Of a DNA stretch of 6,528 nt, positions 1 to 6,528 are shown piece after piece. Source of the stretch: a virus (taxonomy: Duplodnaviria; Heunggongvirae; Uroviricota; Caudoviricetes); IMG/VR virus record IMGVR_UViG_2563366825_000008; one strand, written 5' to 3'. The notes beneath the pieces were generated by a model that saw only the letters and a list, made by a program, of their open reading frames with translations, was not told the origin of the DNA and made no database searches. A program made the position numbers and the translations under genes. Numbering within the stretch: the stretch's first letter is position 1; every line of letters starts with the position of its first letter.

Positions 1-642
1 CCCTGCGTGAATATCTCCGGTGAGCCAGAGGATTATTTCCGGATGTCGCCGGAGGACTGGCTGCAGGCAGAAATGCAGGGTGAGATTGTGGCGCTGGTCC
101 ACAGCCACCCCGGTGGTCTGCCCTGGCTGAGTGAGGCTGACCGGCGGCTGCAGGTGCAGAGTGATTTGCCGTGGTTGCTGGTCTGCCGGGGGGCGATTCA
201 TAAGTTCCGCTGTGTGCCGCATCTCACCGGGCGGCGCTTTGAGCACGGGGTGACGGACTGTTACACGCTGTTCCGGGATGCTTATCATCTGGCGGGGATT
301 GAGATGCCGGATTTTCATCGCGAGGATGACTGGTGGCGTCACGGTCAGAATCTCTATCTGGATAATCTGGAGGCCACAGGGCTGTATCAGGTGCCGTTGT
401 CAGCGGCGCAGCCGGGCGATGTGCTGCTGTGCTGTTTTGGTTCATCGGTGCCGAATCATGCCGCCATTTACTGCGGCGACGGCGAGCTGTTGCACCATAT
501 TCCTGAACAACTGAGCAAACGAGAGAGGTATACAGACAAATGGCAGCGACGCACACACTCCCTCTGGCGTCACCGGGCATGGCGCGCATCTGCCTTTACG
601 GGGATTTGCAACGATTTGGCCGCCGCATCGACCTTCGTGTGA
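1..642 (+). CDS. K: Tail tip assembly protein K, 5'-truncated by the window edge; JAB/MPN (JAMM) metallopeptidase-like domain followed by NlpC/P60 cysteine peptidase-like domain
   Basis: Frame 1 is open from nt 1 (translation begins PCVNISGEPEDYF...) to TGA at 640-642. The Met at nt 7 in the ORF track is internal, not the true start. JAMM-type motif HSHPGGLPWLSEAD (H-x-H-x7-S-x2-D) is encoded at nt 100-141. A candidate NlpC/P60 catalytic Cys lies in GVTDCYTLF (codon 259-261), with downstream His in PNHAAIY (codon 457-459) and LLHHIPE. The product is recognised as lambda gpK-like from memory. Confidence 0.88.
   Translation, partial: PCVNISGEPEDYFRMSPEDWLQAEMQGEIVALVHSHPGGLPWLSEADRRLQVQSDLPWLLVCRGAIHKFRCVPHLTGRRFEHGVTDCYTLFRDAYHLAGIEMPDFHREDDWWRHGQNLYLDNLEATGLYQVPLSAAQPGDVLLCCFGSSVPNHAAIYCGDGELLHHIPEQLSKRERYTDKWQRRTHSLWRHRAWRASAFTGICNDLAAASTFV
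521..528 (+). promoter_or_regulatory. Candidate Shine-Dalgarno (GAGAGAGG) for gene I, lying inside the 3' end of K
   Basis: Purine-rich GAGAGAGG sits 11 nt upstream of the I start codon at 540. The spacing is on the long side. Confidence 0.35.
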
Positions 643-1271: not shown

Positions 1272-4200
1272 ATGGGTAAAGGCAGCAGTAAGGGGCATAC
1301 CCCGCGCGAAGCGAAGGACAACCTGAAGTCCACGCAGCTGCTGAGTGTGATCGATGCCATCAGCGAAGGGCCGGTTGAAGGTCCGGTGGATGGATTAAAA
1401 AGCGTACTGCTGAACAGTACGCCGGTGCTGGACAGTGAGGGGAATACCAATATATCCGGCGTCACGGTGGTGTTCCGGGCCGGTGAGCAGGAGCAGACAC
1501 CGCCGGAGGGATTTGAATCCTCCGGCTCCGAGACGGTGCTCGGTACAGAAGTGAAATATGACACGCCGATCACCCGGACCATCACGTCGGCAAACATTGA
1601 CCGTCTGCGTTTTACTTTCGGCGTGCAGGCACTGGTGGAAACCACCTCAAAGGGGGACAGGAATCCATCGGAAGTCCGCCTGCTGGTTCAGATACAACGT
1701 AACGGTGGCTGGGTGACGGAAAAAGACATCACCATTAAGGGTAAAACCACTTCACAGTATCTGGCCTCGGTGGTGGTGGATAACCTGCCGCCGCGCCCGT
1801 TCAGTATCCGGATGCGCAGGATGACGCCGGACAGCACCACAGACCAGCTGCAGAACAAAACGCTCTGGTCGTCATACACCGAAATTATCGATGTGAAACA
1901 GTGCTACCCGAACACGGCACTGGTCGGCGTGCAGGTGGACTCGGAGCAGTTCGGCAGCCAGCAGGTGAGCCGTAATTATCATCTGCGCGGGCGTATTCTG
2001 CAGGTGCCGTCGAATTATACCCCGCAGACGCGGCAATACAGCGGTATCTGGGACGGAACGTTTAAACCGGCATACAGCAACAACATGGCCTGGTGTCTGT
2101 GGGATATGCTGACCCATCCGCGCTACGGCATGGGGAAACGTCTTGGTGCGGCGGATGTGGATAAATGGGCGTTGTATGTTATCGGCCAGTACTGCGACCA
2201 GTCAGTGCCGGACGGCTTTGGCGGCACGGAGCCGCGCATCACCTGTAATGCGTACCTGACCACACAGCGCAAGGCGTGGGATGTGCTCAGTGATTTCTGC
2301 TCGGCGATGCGCTGTATGCCGGTATGGAACGGGCAGACGCTGACGTTCGTGCAGGACCGACCATCAGATAAGGTGTGGACCTATAACCGCAGTAATGTGG
2401 TGATGCCGGATGATGGCGCGCCGTTCCGCTACAGCTTCAGCGCCCTGAAGGACCGCCATAATGCCGTTGAGGTGAACTGGATTGACCCGAACAACGGCTG
2501 GGAGACGGCGACAGAGCTTGTTGAAGATACGCAGGCCATTGCCCGTTACGGTCGTAATGTCACGAAGATGGATGCCTTTGGCTGTACCAGCCGGGGGCAG
2601 GCACACCGCGCCGGGCTGTGGCTGATTAAAACTGAACTGCTGGAGACGCAGACCGTGGATTTCAGCGTGGGTGCTGAAGGGCTTCGCCATGTACCGGGCG
2701 ATGTCATTGAAATCTGCGATGATGACTATGCCGGTATCAGCACCGGTGGTCGCGTGCTGGCGGTGAACAGCCAGACCCGGACGCTGACGCTCGACCGTGA
2801 AATCACGCTGCCATCCTCCGGTACCACGCTGATAAGCCTGGTTGACGGAAGTGGTAATCCGGTCAGCGTGGAGGTTCAGTCCGTCACCGACGGACTTAAG
2901 GTGAAAGTGAACCGGGTTCCTGATGGCGTTGCAGAATACAGTGTGTGGGGGCTGAAGCTGCCGACGTTGCGTCAGCGCCTGTTCCGCTGTGTGAGTATCC
3001 GTGAGAACGATGACGGCACGTATGCCATCACTGCCGTGCAGCATGTACTGGAAAAAGAAGCCATCGTGGATAACGGGGCGCACTTTGACGGCGACCAGAG
3101 CAGCACGGTGAATGGTGTCACGCCGCCAGCGGTGCAGCACCTGACCGCCGAAGTCACCGCAGACAGCGGGGAATATCAGGTGCTGGCGCGCTGGGACACG
3201 CCGAAGGTGGTGAAGGGCGTGAGCTTCCTGCTCCGTCTGACCGTAACAGCGGATGACGGCAGTGAGCGGCTGGTCAGCACGGCCCGGACGACGGAAACCA
3301 CATACCGCTTCACGCAACTGGCGCTGGGGAACTACAGGCTGACAGTCCGGGCGGTAAATGCGTGGGGGCAGCAGGGCGATCCGGCGTCGGTATCGTTCCG
3401 GATTGCCGCACCGGCAGCACCGTCGAGGATTGAGCTGACGCCGGGCTATTTTCAGATAACCGCCACGCCGCATCTTGCCGTTTATGACCCGACGGTACAG
3501 TTTGAGTTCTGGTTCTCGGAAAAACGGATTGCTGATATCAGGCAGGTTGAAACCACAGCCCGCTATCTTGGCACGGCGCTGTACTGGATAGCCGCCAGTA
3601 TCAATATCAAACCGGGCCATGATTATTATTTTTACGTTCGCAGTGTGAACACCGTTGGCAAATCGGCATTCGTGGAGGCTGTTGGTCAGCCGAGTGATGA
3701 TGCATCCGGCTATCTGGATTTTTTCAAAGGCGAGATAGGGAAAACCCATCTGGCTCAGGAGCTGTGGACGCAGATTGATAACGGTCAGCTTGCGCCTGAC
3801 CTGGCTGAAATCAGGACGTCCATTACGGATGTCAGCAATGAAATCACGCAGACCGTCAATAAGAAACTGGAAGACCAGAGTGCGGCAATTCAGCAGATAC
3901 AGAAGGTTCAGGTTGATACAAATAATAACCTGAACAGCATGTGGGCTGTGAAGCTGCAGCAGATGCAGGACGGACGCCTTTATATCGCGGGTATTGGTGC
4001 CGGTATTGAGAACACCCCTGACGGCATGCAGAGTCAGGTGCTGCTGGCGGCGGACAGGATTGCGATGGTTAATCCTGCGAATGGCAACACAAAACCGATG
4101 TTTGTTGGTCAGGGCGATCAGATATTCATGAACGACGTGTTCCTGAAACGCCTGACGGCCCCCACCATTACCAGCGGTGGAAATCCACCGGCATTTTCCC

Positions 4201-4751
4201 TGACACCGGACGGAAAGCTGACTGCTAAAAATGCGGATATCAGTGGCAGTGTGAATGCGAACTCCGGGACGCTCAACAACGTCACGATTAATGAGAACTG
4301 TCAGATTAAGGGGAAACTGTCAGCCAATCAGATTGAAGGCGATATTGTCAAAACAGTGGGTAAGGCTTTCCCGCGGGACTCCCGGGCACCGGAGCGGTGG
4401 CCATCAGGGACCATTACCGTCAGGATTTATGACGATCAGCCTTTTGACAGGCAAATTGTTATTCCAGCGGTGGCATTCTGCGGCGCTAAACATGAGCGGG
4501 AGAATAACGATATTTATTCGTCATGCCGCCTGATAGTGAAGAAAAATGGTGCTGAAATTTATAACCGTACCGCGCTGGATAATACGCTGATTTACAGTGG
4601 TGTTATTGATATGCCAGCTGGTCACGGCCACATGACGCTGGAGTTTTCGGTGTCAGCATGGCTGGTAAATGACTGGTATCCCACAGCAAGTATCAGCGAT
4701 TTGCTGGTTGTGGTGATGAAGAAAGCCACCGCAGGCATCAGTATCAGCTGA
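1272..4751 (+). CDS. J: Central tail fibre / host specificity protein J (1159 aa), tail tip protein with FN3-like internal modules and a variant C-terminal receptor-binding region
   Basis: ATG at 1272 to TGA at 4749-4751, with a good SD. The N-terminus [42 protein letters not shown]... and most of the first ~800 residues are recognised as lambda gpJ-like. The conserved stretch [60 protein letters not shown] is present. The C-terminal ~150 aa differ from my recollection of lambda J. Confidence 0.95.
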
Positions 4752-4768
4752 ATTTTATAACCCATATA

Positions 4769-4795
4769 CGGGCGCCAGAAATGGCGCCTTTTTTA
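4769..4795 (+). terminator. Rho-independent terminator downstream of J
   Basis: Stem GGCGCCA (4771-4777), loop GAAA, stem TGGCGCC (4782-4788), followed directly by TTTTTTATT. On the minus strand the hairpin is not followed by a U-run, so it is + strand specific. Confidence 0.7.
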
Positions 4796-4807
4796 TTGCA
4801 GAAAAGC

Positions 4808-4813
4808 GAGAGG
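4808..4813 (+). promoter_or_regulatory. Shine-Dalgarno (GAGAGG) for lom
   Basis: GAGAGG lies 5 nt upstream of the ATG at 4819. Confidence 0.6.
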
Positions 4814-4818
4814 TAATT

Positions 4819-5418
4819 ATGCGTAAAGTTTGTGCAGCCATTTTGTCCGCAGCCATCTGTCTGGCCGTATCCGGTGCGCCTGCATGGGCGTCTGAGCAGC
4901 AGGCCACACTGAGCGCAGGGTATCTTCATGCCCGTACGAACGCTCCCGGCAGCGATGATCTGAACGGGATTAACGTGAAATACCGTTATGAGTTTACGGA
5001 CACGCTGGGGCTGATTACGTCATTCAGTTATGCCAACGCTGAAGATGAGCAAAAAACGCATTACAGCGATACCCGCTGGCATGAAGATTCCGTGCGTAAC
5101 CGCTGGTTCAGCGTGATGGCGGGGCCGTCTGTGCGCGTGAATGAATGGTTCAGCGCGTATGCGATGGCGGGTATGGCTTACAGCCGTGTTTCGACTTTCT
5201 CCGGAGATTATATCCGCGTAACTGACAACAAGGGGAAAACGCACGATGTGCTGACCGGAAGTGATGACGGTCGCCACAGCAACACGTCTCTGGCGTGGGG
5301 GGCTGGCGTGCAGTTTAACCCGACCGAATCCGTGGCCATTGATATTGCTTATGAAGGCTCCGGCAGTGGTGACTGGCGCACTGACGGTTTCATCGTGGGT
5401 GTCGGTTATAAATTCTGA
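4819..5418 (+). CDS. lom: Lom-like outer membrane protein (Ail/Lom/PagC/OmpX family 8-stranded beta-barrel), 199 aa with N-terminal signal peptide
   Basis: ATG at 4819 to TGA at 5416-5418. The N-terminus [24 protein letters not shown]|SEQQ looks like a Sec signal peptide with an AxA cleavage site. The C-terminus ...[28 protein letters not shown] ends in an aromatic residue (OMP beta-signal) and matches my recollection of the lambda Lom C-terminus. The position immediately after J is as in lambda. Confidence 0.9.
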
Positions 5419-5444
5419 TTAGCCAGGTAACACAGTGTTATGAC

Positions 5445-5471
5445 AGCCCGCCGGTTCAGGCGGGCTTTTTT
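5445..5471 (+). terminator. Rho-independent terminator downstream of lom
   Basis: Stem AGCCCGCC (5445-5452), loop GGTTCA, stem GGCGGGCT (5459-5466), then a T-run to 5471. Confidence 0.75.
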
Positions 5472-5482
5472 GTGGGGGGAAT

Positions 5483-6528
5483 ATGGCAGTAAAGATTTCA
5501 GGTGTACTGAAAGACGGCACAGGAAAACCGGTGCAGAACTGCACAATCCAGCTGAAAGCTAAACGTAACAGTACCACGGTGGTGGTGAACACGCTGGCAT
5601 CTGAAAATCCGGATGAAGCCGGGCGTTACAGCATGGACGTTGAGTACGGTCAGTACAGCGTTATTCTGTTGGTGGAAGGGTTCCCGCCGTCACATGCCGG
5701 GACCATCACCGTGTATGAAGATTCCCGACCCGGTACGCTGAATGATTTTCTCGGTGCCATGACGGAGGATGATGCCCGTCCGGAGGCTCTGCGCCGTTTT
5801 GAGCTGATGGTGGAAGAGGTGGCGCGTAACGCGTCCGCAGTGGCACAGAACACGGCAGCCGCAAAGAAGTCAGCCAGCGATGCCGGCACATCTGCCCGTG
5901 AGGCGGCAACCCATGCGACTGATGCTGCAGACTCAGCACGCGCAGCCAGCTCGTCAGCCGGACAGGCCGCGTCGTCGGCTCAGTCAGCGTCTTCCAGCGC
6001 AGGAACGGCATCAGCAAAGGCCACTGAAGCATTAAAAAGTGCTGCCGCTGCAGAGTCCTCAAAAAGCGCGGCAGCTACCAGTGCCAGTGCCGCGAAAACG
6101 TCTGAAACGAATGCTGCAGCGTCACAACAATCAGCAGCCACTTCTGCATCCACCGCGACTACGAAAGCGTCAGAAGCTGCCATCTCAGCCCGGGATGCGT
6201 CGGCTTCAAAAGAGGCGGCAAAATCATCAGAAACGAACGCATCCTCGAGCGCCAGTAGCGCAGCTTCCTCGGCAACGGCGGCAGCAAATTCCGCGAAGGC
6301 GGCAAAAACGTCCGAGACGAACGCCAGGTCTTCTGAGACGGCAGCGGGACAGAGCGCCTCAGCTGCGGCAGGCTCAAAAACAGCGGCTGCGTCGTCTGCC
6401 AGTGCCGCGTCAACAAGTGCCGGGCAGGCCTCAGCCAGTGCCACCGCCGCCGGAAAATCGGCAGAAAGCGCCGCATCATCCGCTTCAACAGCCACAACGA
6501 AGGCTGGCGAAGCCACTGAACAGGCCAG
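5483..6528 (+). CDS. stf: Side tail fibre protein Stf, N-terminal part; 3'-truncated by the window edge and therefore absent from the ORF track
   Basis: ATG at 5483, preceded by a G-rich SD (GGGGGGA, 5474-5480). Frame 2 is open through the end of the window (about 348 codons). The translation MAVKISGVLKDGTGKPVQNCTIQLKAKRNSTTVVVNTLASENPDEAGRYSMDVEYGQYSVILLVEGFPPSHAGTITVYEDSRPGTLNDFLGAMTEDDARPEALRRFELMVEEVARNAS... is recognised as lambda Stf (orf-401)-like, followed by an Ala/Ser/Thr-rich low-complexity shaft region. Confidence 0.85.
   Translation, partial: MAVKISGVLKDGTGKPVQNCTIQLKAKRNSTTVVVNTLASENPDEAGRYSMDVEYGQYSVILLVEGFPPSHAGTITVYEDSRPGTLNDFLGAMTEDDARPEALRRFELMVEEVARNASAVAQNTAAAKKSASDAGTSAREAATHATDAADSARAASSSAGQAASSAQSASSSAGTASAKATEALKSAAAAESSKSAAATSASAAKTSETNAAASQQSAATSASTATTKASEAAISARDASASKEAAKSSETNASSSASSAASSATAAANSAKAAKTSETNARSSETAAGQSASAAAGSKTAAASSASAASTSAGQASASATAAGKSAESAASSASTATTKAGEATEQA
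6089..6329 (+). repeat. Degenerate in-frame repeats inside stf encoding A-A-K-[ST]-S-E-T-N-A motifs within an Ala/Ser-rich tract
   Basis: Three related ~30-nt units: GCCGCGAAAACGTCTGAAACGAATGCT (6089-), GCGGCAAAATCATCAGAAACGAACGCA (6215-) and GCGGCAAAAACGTCCGAGACGAACGCC (6299-), each encoding AAK(T/S)SETNA. Confidence 0.55.

Follow-up and report, generated by a model that had tools for sequence, protein, structure and literature searches.

The window analysed here, a 6,528-nt stretch of tailed-phage DNA, carries a lom gene between the tail genes J and stf, and this arrangement raises the question of whether lom forms a self-contained cassette, how it is transcribed from between two hairpins and what its product may do at the cell surface. 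The sequence-only reading had described a terminator-bracketed, moron-like cassette carrying a variant outer-membrane barrel of the Lom/Ail/PagC kind.

Layout of the J–stf interval and identity of the lom allele

Positions 4752–5482 correspond exactly to the J–stf interval, with the stop codon of J at 4749–4751, the ATG of lom at 4819 and the ATG of stf at 5483. The interval is the standard lom accessory locus of lambda-like phages with a 434-type allele, and lom, its position between J and stf, its moron status and the window allele are all already present in public annotation and literature. No Rfam family was found anywhere in the window. The features are as follows:

1272–4751, plus strand: tail-tip host-specificity gene J, 1159 aa (ORF list)
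4752–4769, plus strand: spacer after the J stop codon, carrying the motif TTTATAACCC (alignments)
4770–4797, plus strand: intrinsic terminator ending J (terminator scan, RNA fold, covariation, phage 21 record)
4798–5470, plus strand: lom insert proper, 673 bp (phage 21 J–stf joint aligned to both window flanks)
4808–4813, plus strand: Shine–Dalgarno sequence GAGAGG, 5 nt 5' of the lom ATG (sequence and alignment)
4819–5418, plus strand: lom, 199-aa precursor, 434-type allele (Pfam, PHROG and PDB sequence matches, AF2 model)
5335–5340, plus strand: mosaic joint inside lom, approximate (DNA identity to lambda)
5445–5471, plus strand: intrinsic terminator belonging to the lom insert (terminator scan, RNA fold)
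5483–6528, plus strand: start of stf (side tail fibre), running off the window (ORF list, comparison to lambda)

The encoded protein is 91% identical to the Lom of phage 434, both being 199 aa long, and 43% identical (90/207) to lambda Lom (NC_001416). An identical C-terminal end had been noted before, and it comprises the last 25 residues, spanning half of strand 7, loop 4 and strand 8; the differing part, given earlier as the N-terminal two-thirds, is larger and covers residues 1–174 (~87%). The allele is not an unusual variant, as had been supposed, since the 434 type is the commonest in E. coli and the lambda type is rare. Of 5426 complete E. coli genomes, 4802 gave a DNA match, with a median of 2 and a maximum of 14 copies, and matches were also obtained in 222 phage records. 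Lom is thus carried by about 88% of the complete E. coli genomes, often in multiple copies.

Phage 434 (OL657227; also lambda h434 hybrids) has the same leader, a similar upstream hairpin (a GGGCACC...GGTGCC variant) and the same J–stf position, but the receptor-binding end of its J is only 49% identical to that of the window, and an extracellular patch at residues 72–82 reads AGDKNRQLTRY in 434 Lom and has another 11-residue sequence in the window protein. Lambda lom (NP_040601) similarly shares position and architecture (hairpin with T-run, ~29 nt, ATG; lom; terminator; 64-nt spacer to stf), together with a homologous leader and a near-identical downstream terminator, while its upstream hairpin is unlike that of the window in sequence. 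The window Lom is 8 residues shorter than lambda Lom in loop 1, this gap being the only indel between the two proteins.

Along the DNA, J is about 94–100% identical to lambda up to ~3650, and the receptor-binding end (4300–4751, ~150 codons) shows 43% protein identity to lambda J. DNA identity to lambda is ~50–60% before 5335–5340 and ~95% after it (lom end, terminator and stf start), a jump which places a mosaic joint inside lom; the first 60 residues of Stf are 95% identical to those of lambda. The terminator-bracketed cassette was consequently rejected as the unit that differs from lambda, as the divergent block runs from ~4300 in J to ~5335 in lom and both joints lie in coding DNA. Across the population, the cassette does hold as a reassorting unit, though not for the window–lambda pair.

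Two terminators and the boundaries of the insert

A terminator scan placed two plus-strand sites, the hairpins upstream and downstream of lom, at the top of the ranking for the whole window. The upstream stem-loop (4770–4789, GGGCGCCA-GAAA-TGGCGCCT) has eight pairs, six of them G-C, a GAAA loop and a T-rich tail, TTTTT-A-TT, up to 4797 (T6-A-TT), and RNA folding gave −15.7 kcal/mol (z −3.0), with 2 of 200 shuffles equally good. The downstream stem-loop (5445–5466, AGCCCGCC-GGTTCA-GGCGGGCT) has eight pairs, seven of them G-C, a 6-nt loop and a T-run at 5466–5471 (T6), and folds at −20.7 kcal/mol (z −2.6; 4/200 shuffles equally good). Both thus consist of a G+C-rich stem-loop with a T-run directly behind it on the transcribed strand, and neither has such a run behind it on the minus strand. 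The proposal that lom is flanked by two strong intrinsic terminators was accordingly borne out, at 4770–4797 and 5445–5471 on the plus strand. The distance of ~24 nt given between the upstream terminator and the lom ATG is also correct, amounting to 21 nt (4798–4818) from the end of the T-rich tail and 24 nt from the end of the T6 run.

The upstream hairpin was present at 119 of the 120 J–lom junctions scanned, in all three Lom types and 27–30 nt before the ATG; at the sole junction lacking it (L120), the leader is deleted. In the alignment, 94% of stem cells were paired and 13 were altered on both sides, involving three pairs (GC to AU in 6 sequences, CG to UA in 4 and AU to UA in 2), and the covariation score was reached by none of 500 shuffles. 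The T-run is invariant beside this stem that varies by compensatory substitution. The structure of the upstream hairpin is maintained by selection. Different stems also occupy the site elsewhere, with another one at equal distance at a Citrobacter locus and an unrelated one at the same place in lambda. The loop of the upstream hairpin occurs in flipped form (AGAAAT to ATTTCT) at six loci. The downstream hairpin is kept in nearly all loci in which stf starts 64 nt after lom, with a different hairpin in its place in three loci; here 96% of cells were paired, no covariation was seen and the whole spacer is 97% conserved. The GAGAGG Shine–Dalgarno sequence is unchanged in the alignment columns of all three Lom types.

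Loci without lom define the limits of the insert. The gene is missing in phage 21 and in 60 viral contigs, all of which have the same J–stf joint, and according to the phage 21 alignment this joint equals the window up to 4797 connected directly to 5471 onward. The unit of presence and absence therefore spans from T-run to T-run (4798–5470). Within this unit, a 21-nt leader bearing the ribosome-binding site precedes lom, and a 26-nt spacer then leads to the downstream hairpin, most of whose T-run is included; stf begins 12 nt after the end of the unit. Among the 60 contigs, the lom-less joint adjoins 21-type, window-type and 434-type J ends. The J–stf junction of phage 21 (OL657228) has the same post-J motif, an identical hairpin, which is annotated as a terminator in its record, and the same stf start, but is without the 673-bp insert. 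The upstream terminator is hence part of the end of J, present with or without lom, and its earlier assignment to the lom unit does not stand, as it ends J even in lom-less loci. That this terminator is conserved independently of lom is a point of modest use.

The same Lom type (92–100% identity) was found beside J ends that are 100, 79, 67, 52 and 47% identical to that of the window, and between loci sharing a Lom type, identity resumes at the J stop codon. The lom insert reassorts as a module, with its left joint at the J stop codon or terminator and its right joint within the final ~80 nt of lom, which are conserved; the present/absent polymorphism is bounded by the two T-runs. Since the mosaic joints and the lom indel lie at or beside the hairpins, it could also be proposed that the hairpins serve chiefly in recombination, as conserved joints, or in stabilising RNA, and not in terminating transcription, and the loop flip in six loci fits recombination across an inverted repeat. 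We consider this very improbable. The T-run stays constant next to a stem that changes in a compensatory manner, and lambda and Citrobacter have unrelated stems, again with T-runs, at this position. Only on the plus strand do the two hairpins have the geometry of canonical terminators, and the joints relative to lambda lie in coding DNA, away from the hairpins.

Lom has been named as a moron product (PMC3594210). In common with the morons defined in HK97 and HK022 (Juhala et al. 2000, reviewed in PMC3594210), it is an extra gene between conserved tail genes, variably present and with its own terminator behind it. The description of the cassette as moron-like was thus upheld in so far as the insert is present in some relatives and absent in others at one site, and has its own terminator (5445–5471) inside it. 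Unlike the HK97/HK022 morons, however, it has no recognisable promoter of its own, starting only 21 nt before the ATG, and its base composition is ordinary. The G+C content of lom (55.0%) is like that of the flanking K-I-J region (56.6%), so that the compositional hallmark of a moron is absent; the corresponding values in lambda are 54.4% for lom and 57.1% for J.

Transcription of lom

With the cassette delimited to the base (4798–5470) and promoter-free, the long-standing problem of lom transcription in lysogens becomes sharper. A sigma-70 consensus scan found no promoter near lom, and a weight matrix gave best scores of only 3.7 in 4700–4815 and 6.1 in 4300–4835, compared to 9.7–13.2 for the control promoters lacUV5, pR, pL and pRM (pRM scoring 9.7). 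A start that departs from the consensus or depends on an activator is still conceivable. The earlier remark that the gap between hairpin and lom leaves no room for a promoter agrees with these results. Two further candidates were discarded. The first, a sigma-32-like CTGAA...CCCATAT after the J stop codon recognised by eye, has a spacing of about 8–9 nt, the sigma-32 consensus spacing being about 13–14 nt, and also occurs in lom-less loci. The second, a promoter-like site on the minus strand from 4780 to 4752 (score 7.3), is not unusual for the window and has no conserved counterpart in 207-aa-type loci.

For lambda lom, expression in lysogens and a strong rise late in infection have been reported (PMC12366544, PMC7067206, PMC1151598). 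Expression in lysogens implies some start site, and none was located in the promoter scans performed here. One way to account for it is to regard lom as a self-contained moron of the classic kind, driven in the lysogen by a promoter of its own that is situated in the last J codons or overlaps the hairpin; in one variant, transcription would start in the left arm of the hairpin, so that lom's own transcripts escape the terminator while transcripts from upstream are stopped. Besides the reported expression of lambda lom from the prophage (PMC7067206, PMC12366544, PMC1151598), this is favoured by the Lom-like gene of Stx phage 24B, whose expression in lysogens was similar to that in induced cells (PMC3342100), although the 24B protein belongs to a different, fourth Lom type and is ~41% identical. 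Around the J stop codon, a weak pair, ATGAAG-17-CAGTAT, lies in the conserved last J codons and has a counterpart in the 207-aa type, the two scoring 3.7 and 5.0, and the motif after the stop codon is conserved in two Lom types as well as in lom-less loci (as TTTATAACCC in 434-type and lom-less loci, and as TTTATTAACCC in 207-aa-type loci). Its conservation where lom is absent, however, speaks against a promoter serving lom, and every candidate site scores far below even the weak pRM. Moreover, the variable insert begins 21 nt before the ATG, so a promoter would belong to the end of J, and the protein sequences of J ends that adjoin the same Lom type diverge by as much as 53%, with only ~100 nt of upstream DNA shared. 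Taken together, a promoter dedicated to lom appears unlikely.

The best explanation, and in our view a probable one, is that lom is a terminator-bounded, promoter-less insert expressed by Q-dependent readthrough, which encodes a surface barrel and reassorts as a module. During lytic growth, Q-modified RNA polymerase from the late promoter would pass both hairpins, as it must because stf and tfa lie further downstream, and lom would in consequence be made in abundance late in infection. In a lysogen, the locus would be insulated by the two hairpins, and low-level transcription of lom may come from polymerase leaking past the J terminator, or else from a weak start that lacks a sigma-70 consensus. 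The T-rich tail behind lambda's hairpin includes a TATTAT that is missing from the window allele (TTTATTGC), and the two alleles may therefore differ in expression.

The predicted Lom barrel and its relation to the receptor-binding end of J

The family assignment of the protein is clear, with Lom matching Pfam PF06316 Ail_Lom over the full length (420 bits against a cut-off of 23, E=1.3e-126, residues 1–199 to profile positions 1–199) and PHROG 108 'Lom outer membrane protein' (E=6e-110). Sequence matches in the PDB were lambda Lom (9wso), OmpX and Ail, with E about 1e-18 to the latter two. The AF2 model, built from a shallow alignment of close homologues, so that strand and loop borders are approximate, has a mean pLDDT of 65 and displays seven clear long strands, while strand 1 and loop 1 are poorly placed. 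Its top Foldseek matches were Ail 3qrc (E=7e-10, TM 0.67 on target) and OmpX 1qj9. With moderate confidence, the model points to an eight-stranded antiparallel outer-membrane barrel of the Ail/Lom/OmpX type. A signal peptide is predicted at residues 1–24 (…APAWA|SEQQ; AWA|S at 22–25) as read from the sequence, and the C-terminus carries an aromatic beta-signal, …GVGYKF, with GVGYRF as its counterpart in OmpX. Ail (Yersinia), OmpX (E. coli) and PagC/Rck (Salmonella) belong to the same Pfam family or clan and have the fold in common with Lom, but they are only about 25–30% identical to it, and Lom is phage-borne and lies inside the tail operon. Compared to OmpX, Lom has longer outward-projecting strands and loops (199 aa precursor versus 148 aa mature).

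The divergence from lambda Lom is unevenly distributed, with 22% identity in the predicted extracellular half and 56% elsewhere (Fisher p=7e-5). The check by topology prediction thus came out in favour of the expectation that divergent residues concentrate in the external half. The narrower claim that they sit in surface loops was correct in part only, as the membrane strands differ too; at 56% identity in these strands, the window protein is a deeply diverged allele rather than one altered in its loops only. The product would accordingly be a Sec-exported eight-stranded barrel of the Ail/OmpX type, judging from homology and the moderate-confidence model, whose membrane half is similar to that of lambda Lom and whose outward-facing half appears almost unrelated. 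By analogy with lambda Lom (43% identical overall, ~22% in the exposed half), it may act at the surface through its external face. For lambda Lom, adhesion to host cells, specifically buccal cells, has been reported (cited in PMC7067206 and PMC3594210), as has interference with phage adsorption.

An alternative view of the locus is that each Lom allele masks the receptor used by the J tip of its own phage and so counteracts adsorption, in which case the outer face of the window allele would recognise a porin other than LamB, and the J end and lom would form one functional unit. For lambda Lom, two observations hint at masking. One is a deposited complex, PDB 9wso, in which the protein occurs with lambda's receptor, the maltoporin LamB; a paper describing this Lom–LamB structure was looked for in the literature and not found. 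The other is lambda-specific protection, as lambda-vir is blocked when lambda Lom is overexpressed and T7 is not (PMC12366544). The Lom type also correlates with the neighbouring J receptor-binding type, though not one-to-one. J ends of the 21 type occurred with the 207-aa Lom type in 27 cases and without lom in 40, and those of the lambda type with lambda Lom in 10, while the 434-type Lom was found with window-type J ends in 72 cases and with 434-type J ends in 15, the same two J types being without lom in 16 cases and 1 case, respectively. In addition to this strong association, the receptor-binding end of J and lom diverge together relative to lambda, the divergence of Lom is concentrated on the predicted outer face, and the hypervariable patch at residues 72–82 tends to track the J type within the 434 type.

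Strict one-to-one linkage between Lom and J was nevertheless rejected, because one Lom type stands beside at least five J-end types, including window- and 434-type ends that are only 49% identical, and lom-less loci share the same J types and are common. The patch alleles show exceptions in both directions, PADLOC gave no match, and with the two genes ~70 nt apart an association is expected by linkage alone. Receptor masking as the explanation of the locus is therefore a reading we regard with doubt. Its extension to the diverged alleles as a set (the lambda, 207-aa, 434/window and podovirus Stx-phage types), as specificity variants each masking the receptor of its own tail, seems rather improbable. 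If it were true, the outer face of the window allele would target a different porin, and the receptor-binding end of J and lom would be a co-adapted pair, kept by selection despite the recombination joint between them. The three or four very different Lom alleles constitute a ready panel for testing allele-specific receptor masking.

The 'LomW' of the EHEC vaccine papers is the protein of BP-933W, which probably belongs to the fourth, podovirus Lom type.

Layout of the locus and its two terminators

Judged by its open reading frames, the window (6528 bases) covers the distal part of the tail genes of a lambda-like phage or prophage. In a scan of its full length, the two top-ranked terminator-like sites on the plus strand lie on either side of lom, in agreement with the sequence-only reading, which had set the gene between two strong intrinsic terminators.

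Features of the window
7-642, end of gene K
540-1211, gene I
1272-4751, gene J (1159 aa; stop codon 4749-4751)
4770-4789, plus strand, upstream terminator-like hairpin: GGGCGCCA GAAA TGGCGCCT, then TTTTTATT
4808-4813, Shine-Dalgarno sequence of lom, GAGAGG
4819-5418, plus strand, lom (199 codons; ATG at 4819)
5445-5466, plus strand, downstream terminator-like hairpin: AGCCCGCC GGTTCA GGCGGGCT, then TTTTT
from 5483, start of the side tail fibre gene stf

Both hairpins are predicted to fold stably (-15.7 kcal/mol, z -3.0 upstream; -20.7 kcal/mol, z -2.6 downstream), and the minus strand shows no T-run at either. Given the positions of the hairpin end, GAGAGG and the ATG, only 21-24 nt separate the upstream terminator tail from the lom start codon, close to the ~24 nt estimated earlier. 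Among 155 surveyed loci with lom, 120 included the J-lom junction, and a hairpin with a T-run ending 27-30 nt 5' of the ATG was found in 119 of these, across all three Lom types (lambda type, 207-aa type and the 434 type of the window). The sole exception, L120 (207-aa type), has its leader deleted, so that the hairpin T-run abuts the ATG (…GGTGCCTTTTTATG) and the reading frame spans 215 aa, making it a naturally occurring form that lacks the usual ribosome-binding site.

Changes in the upstream stem compensate one another (GGGCGCC/GGCGCC, GGGCACC/GGTGCC and GGGCGTC/GACGCC; CGTCCG/CGGGCG in lambda and GAGCGC/GGCGCT in Citrobacter), while the T-run and leader 5' of lom are invariant in the alignment. 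In the set of 22 distinct sequences, pairing holds in 94% of cells and both partners have changed at three pairs (13 cells); neither the covariation score nor the paired fraction was reached in any of 500 shuffles. In the downstream hairpin 96% of cells pair, with no covariation signal because the 64-nt lom-stf spacer that holds it is 97% conserved over all Lom types; at three loci it is replaced by another hairpin with a T-run. Both hairpins are conserved features, and the compensatory changes mark the upstream one as selected.

Six loci (L009, L016, L021 and similar) carry the upstream loop, equivalent to window 4777-4782, flipped from AGAAAT to its reverse complement ATTTCT with the stem unchanged, as expected from recombination across an inverted repeat. 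A motif directly behind the J stop (window 4752-4769; TTTATAACCC, or TTTATTAACCC in the 207-aa type) is kept in loci with and without lom (L092, L161, L163-L222) and not in lambda; it did not reach a plus-strand promoter score.

The lom insert, its transcription and its joints

Phage 21 has no lom, and its record gives J, an annotated terminator and then the side tail fibre gene. Its junction reads ...TGA ATTTTATAACCCAGATAC GGGCGCCAGAAATGGCGCC TTTTTTATT | TGTGGAGTGAATATG (stf), in which the first part equals the window's upstream spacer and hairpin, fused straight to the sequence 3' of the window's downstream hairpin. This lom-less joint also occurs in 60 viral contigs, beside 21-type, window-type and 434-type J ends (variants of the C-terminal receptor-binding end of J). 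The piece that is present or absent is therefore window 4798-5470 (673 bp): lom, preceded by a 21-nt leader that includes the ribosome-binding site and followed by a 26-nt spacer and the downstream hairpin. The joint sits in the T-runs. From these limits it follows that the upstream terminator is part of the J end and exists without lom, and that the insert carries its own terminator and no promoter. The proposed terminator-bracketed cassette was essentially right, and has to be amended in that the upstream terminator belongs to J. The lom-less arrangement of phage 21 could be ancestral, or could have arisen by deletion from one T-run to the other. The three Lom types have a homologous leader and the same flanks in common, which makes them diverged alleles of one locus rather than independent insertions.

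A consensus scan found no plus-strand promoter near lom. When scored with hexamer weight matrices and spacer penalties, window 4700-4815 reached at best 3.7 and window 4300-4835 at best 6.1, compared to 13.2 for lacUV5, 12.7 for pR, 12.4 for pL and 9.7 for pRM. The 120 nt upstream of lambda lom reached 3.9; lambda differs in having TATTAT in the T-rich tail of its hairpin, but without a -35 element. These scans bear out the earlier point that the short stretch behind the upstream terminator leaves no room for a canonical promoter. Since no promoter was found and the G+C content of lom (55.0%) resembles that of its flanks (56.6%), lom lacks two classical marks of a moron, an accessory insert in a phage operon. 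A promoter-like pair on the minus strand (TTCTGG-17-TAAAAT, 4780 to 4752, score 7.3) overlaps with the hairpin, facing back into J; about eight such scores occur on that strand of the window, and the pair may be due to chance.

For lambda lom, the literature reports expression in lysogens and a strong rise late in infection (PMC12366544; PMC7067206; PMC1151598). The simplest reading of the locus anatomy is that lom would be expressed mainly by Q-antiterminated late transcription, which cannot arrive at stf and tfa without passing both hairpins, and that in the lysogen it would be transcribed only by leak or from a non-consensus start.

In a sliding comparison with lambda, DNA identity runs at 94-100% up to ~3650, drops to 24-65% at 3700-4100 inside J, recovers to 90-95% in an island at 4100-4300, falls to ~50-62% from ~4300 to ~5330 and returns to ~95% from ~5340 through the stf start. 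Compared with lambda, both the J end and lom differ, placing the joints at ~4300 and ~5335, both in coding DNA. Across the population, J C-terminal domains beside the same Lom type (92-100%) are 100, 79, 67, 52 or 47% identical to that of the window, which sets the left joint of the module at the J stop and terminator; in those loci near-identity to the window returns at the last 20-60 nt of J. On the right, the module is joined within the conserved lom end; the C-terminal 27 residues of Lom vary independently of the remainder (81-100%).

J itself is mosaic relative to lambda, with the divergent stretch and the island followed by a divergent receptor-binding end. In related loci, J residues -300 to -150 reassort independently of the final 150, a window-like or lambda-like middle being combined with either end. 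Long minus-strand reading frames inside J (461 aa, 2364-3749) and stf (178 aa, Ala-rich, 5980-6516) are probably by-products of sense-gene composition; the lambda record likewise annotates the antisense orf206b within stf. A 207-aa subgroup (L124-L127) has a different C-terminal tail (…DLAYEVAGHGDWRTDAFIVGIGYRF) and downstream hairpin (GAAGCCCGTGGCATTACTGCTGCGGGCTTT), with stf beginning 149 nt behind lom, and two of its members adjoin a 77% lambda-like J end. Two Shigella flexneri chromosomal loci (L247, L252) have flanks near-identical to the window's, both hairpins included, a Lom match of 46-51% in the best segment and point changes in the leader or T-run, and are probably decaying pseudogene copies.

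Identity, abundance and predicted barrel of the Lom allele

The lom product matches Ail_Lom over its full length (420 bits, E=1.3e-126) and is assigned to PHROG 108, 'Lom outer membrane protein'; the main elements of the locus were known and annotated before. The protein shares 91% identity with phage 434 Lom and 43% with lambda Lom (NC_001416), the lambda alignment having a single gap of 8 residues. Its final 25 residues equal those of lambda Lom, as the sequence-only reading had noted for the end of the protein, whereas the divergence covers residues 1-174 rather than the N-terminal two-thirds. That reading had also called the protein a variant, but the allele is the common one. A cluster of 6,993 member sequences is 94% identical to it, the 821-bp lom region matches 222 phage records, mostly Stx-converting phages, and 4802 of the 5426 complete E. 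coli genomes carry a match to it (median 2, maximum 14 copies per genome). Beyond Escherichia and Shigella, only a 69% relative was found, in Citrobacter. The 207-aa type is also frequent (~57% identical to lambda Lom, ~43% to window Lom), and 24B and other short-tailed Stx phages carry a fourth type, ~41% identical over residues 50-199. The lambda type was seen only in lambda itself and near-identical contigs. Genome contig matches to it (L234-L245, L253-L254, L259-L262; 43% to the window's) come from assemblies of unrelated organisms, e.g. Neobacillus, Kitasatospora, Pseudomonas, Shewanella and Bradyrhizobium, on contigs about 48.4-48.5 kb long or at ~1x coverage, and are almost certainly lambda control-DNA contamination.

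An AlphaFold2 model built from 23 close homologues (moderate, pLDDT 65) predicts strands at 54-60, 65-82, 87-108, 111-135, 141-166, 172-181 and 188-198, with Ail and OmpX as closest structural matches. Topology was taken from the model and an OmpX alignment, and periplasmic turns were set at the short connections 61-64, 109-110 and 167-171. On this predicted topology, identity to lambda Lom is 64% in membrane segments and 28% in outward strand extensions and loops, or 56% and 22% without the recombinant identical tail (35/63 vs 15/69 matches, Fisher p=7e-5), and the single 8-residue indel falls in loop 1. The suggestion that divergence lies in surface loops would accordingly hold as a tendency, but the membrane strands differ too; as they are far from identical, the allele is old and not a loop variant. 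Variation among the 104 distinct 434-type proteins falls on the signal peptide, on loop 1 and on residues 74-82, close to the tip of strand 3.

Lom types and the neighbouring receptor-binding domain

A PDB sequence search showed that lambda Lom has been solved (9wso), in an entry with two Lom chains, three chains of maltoporin LamB, the same LamB construct as in the J-LamB complex 8xcj, and no J; we found no paper on this structure. It suggests that lambda Lom binds LamB, the lambda receptor. Overexpressed lambda Lom protects against lambda-vir and not T7, and an anti-adsorption role late in infection was proposed (2025 study, PMC12366544). In view of the structure and this protection, Lom type was compared with the neighbouring receptor-binding domain.

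Lom types beside each J type (number of loci)
21-type J: 207-aa type Lom 27, no lom 40
lambda-type J: lambda type Lom 10, no lom 0
window-type J: 434 type Lom 72, no lom 16
434-type J: 434 type Lom 15, no lom 1

A few further combinations occur, and the association is strong without being one-to-one. Linkage alone could produce it, as the genes lie ~70 nt apart. Window-type and 434-type J ends are only 49% identical, yet share one Lom type. That allele-specific masking of receptors by Lom takes place is possible, albeit unproven and rather improbable. Possible receptor-specific roles of Lom alleles are, together with the route of lom transcription in lysogens, the testable points of the locus. 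Within the 434 type, patch 72-82 is mostly one 11-residue sequence beside window-type J and mostly AGDKNRQLT[HR]Y beside 434-type J, with exceptions in both directions.
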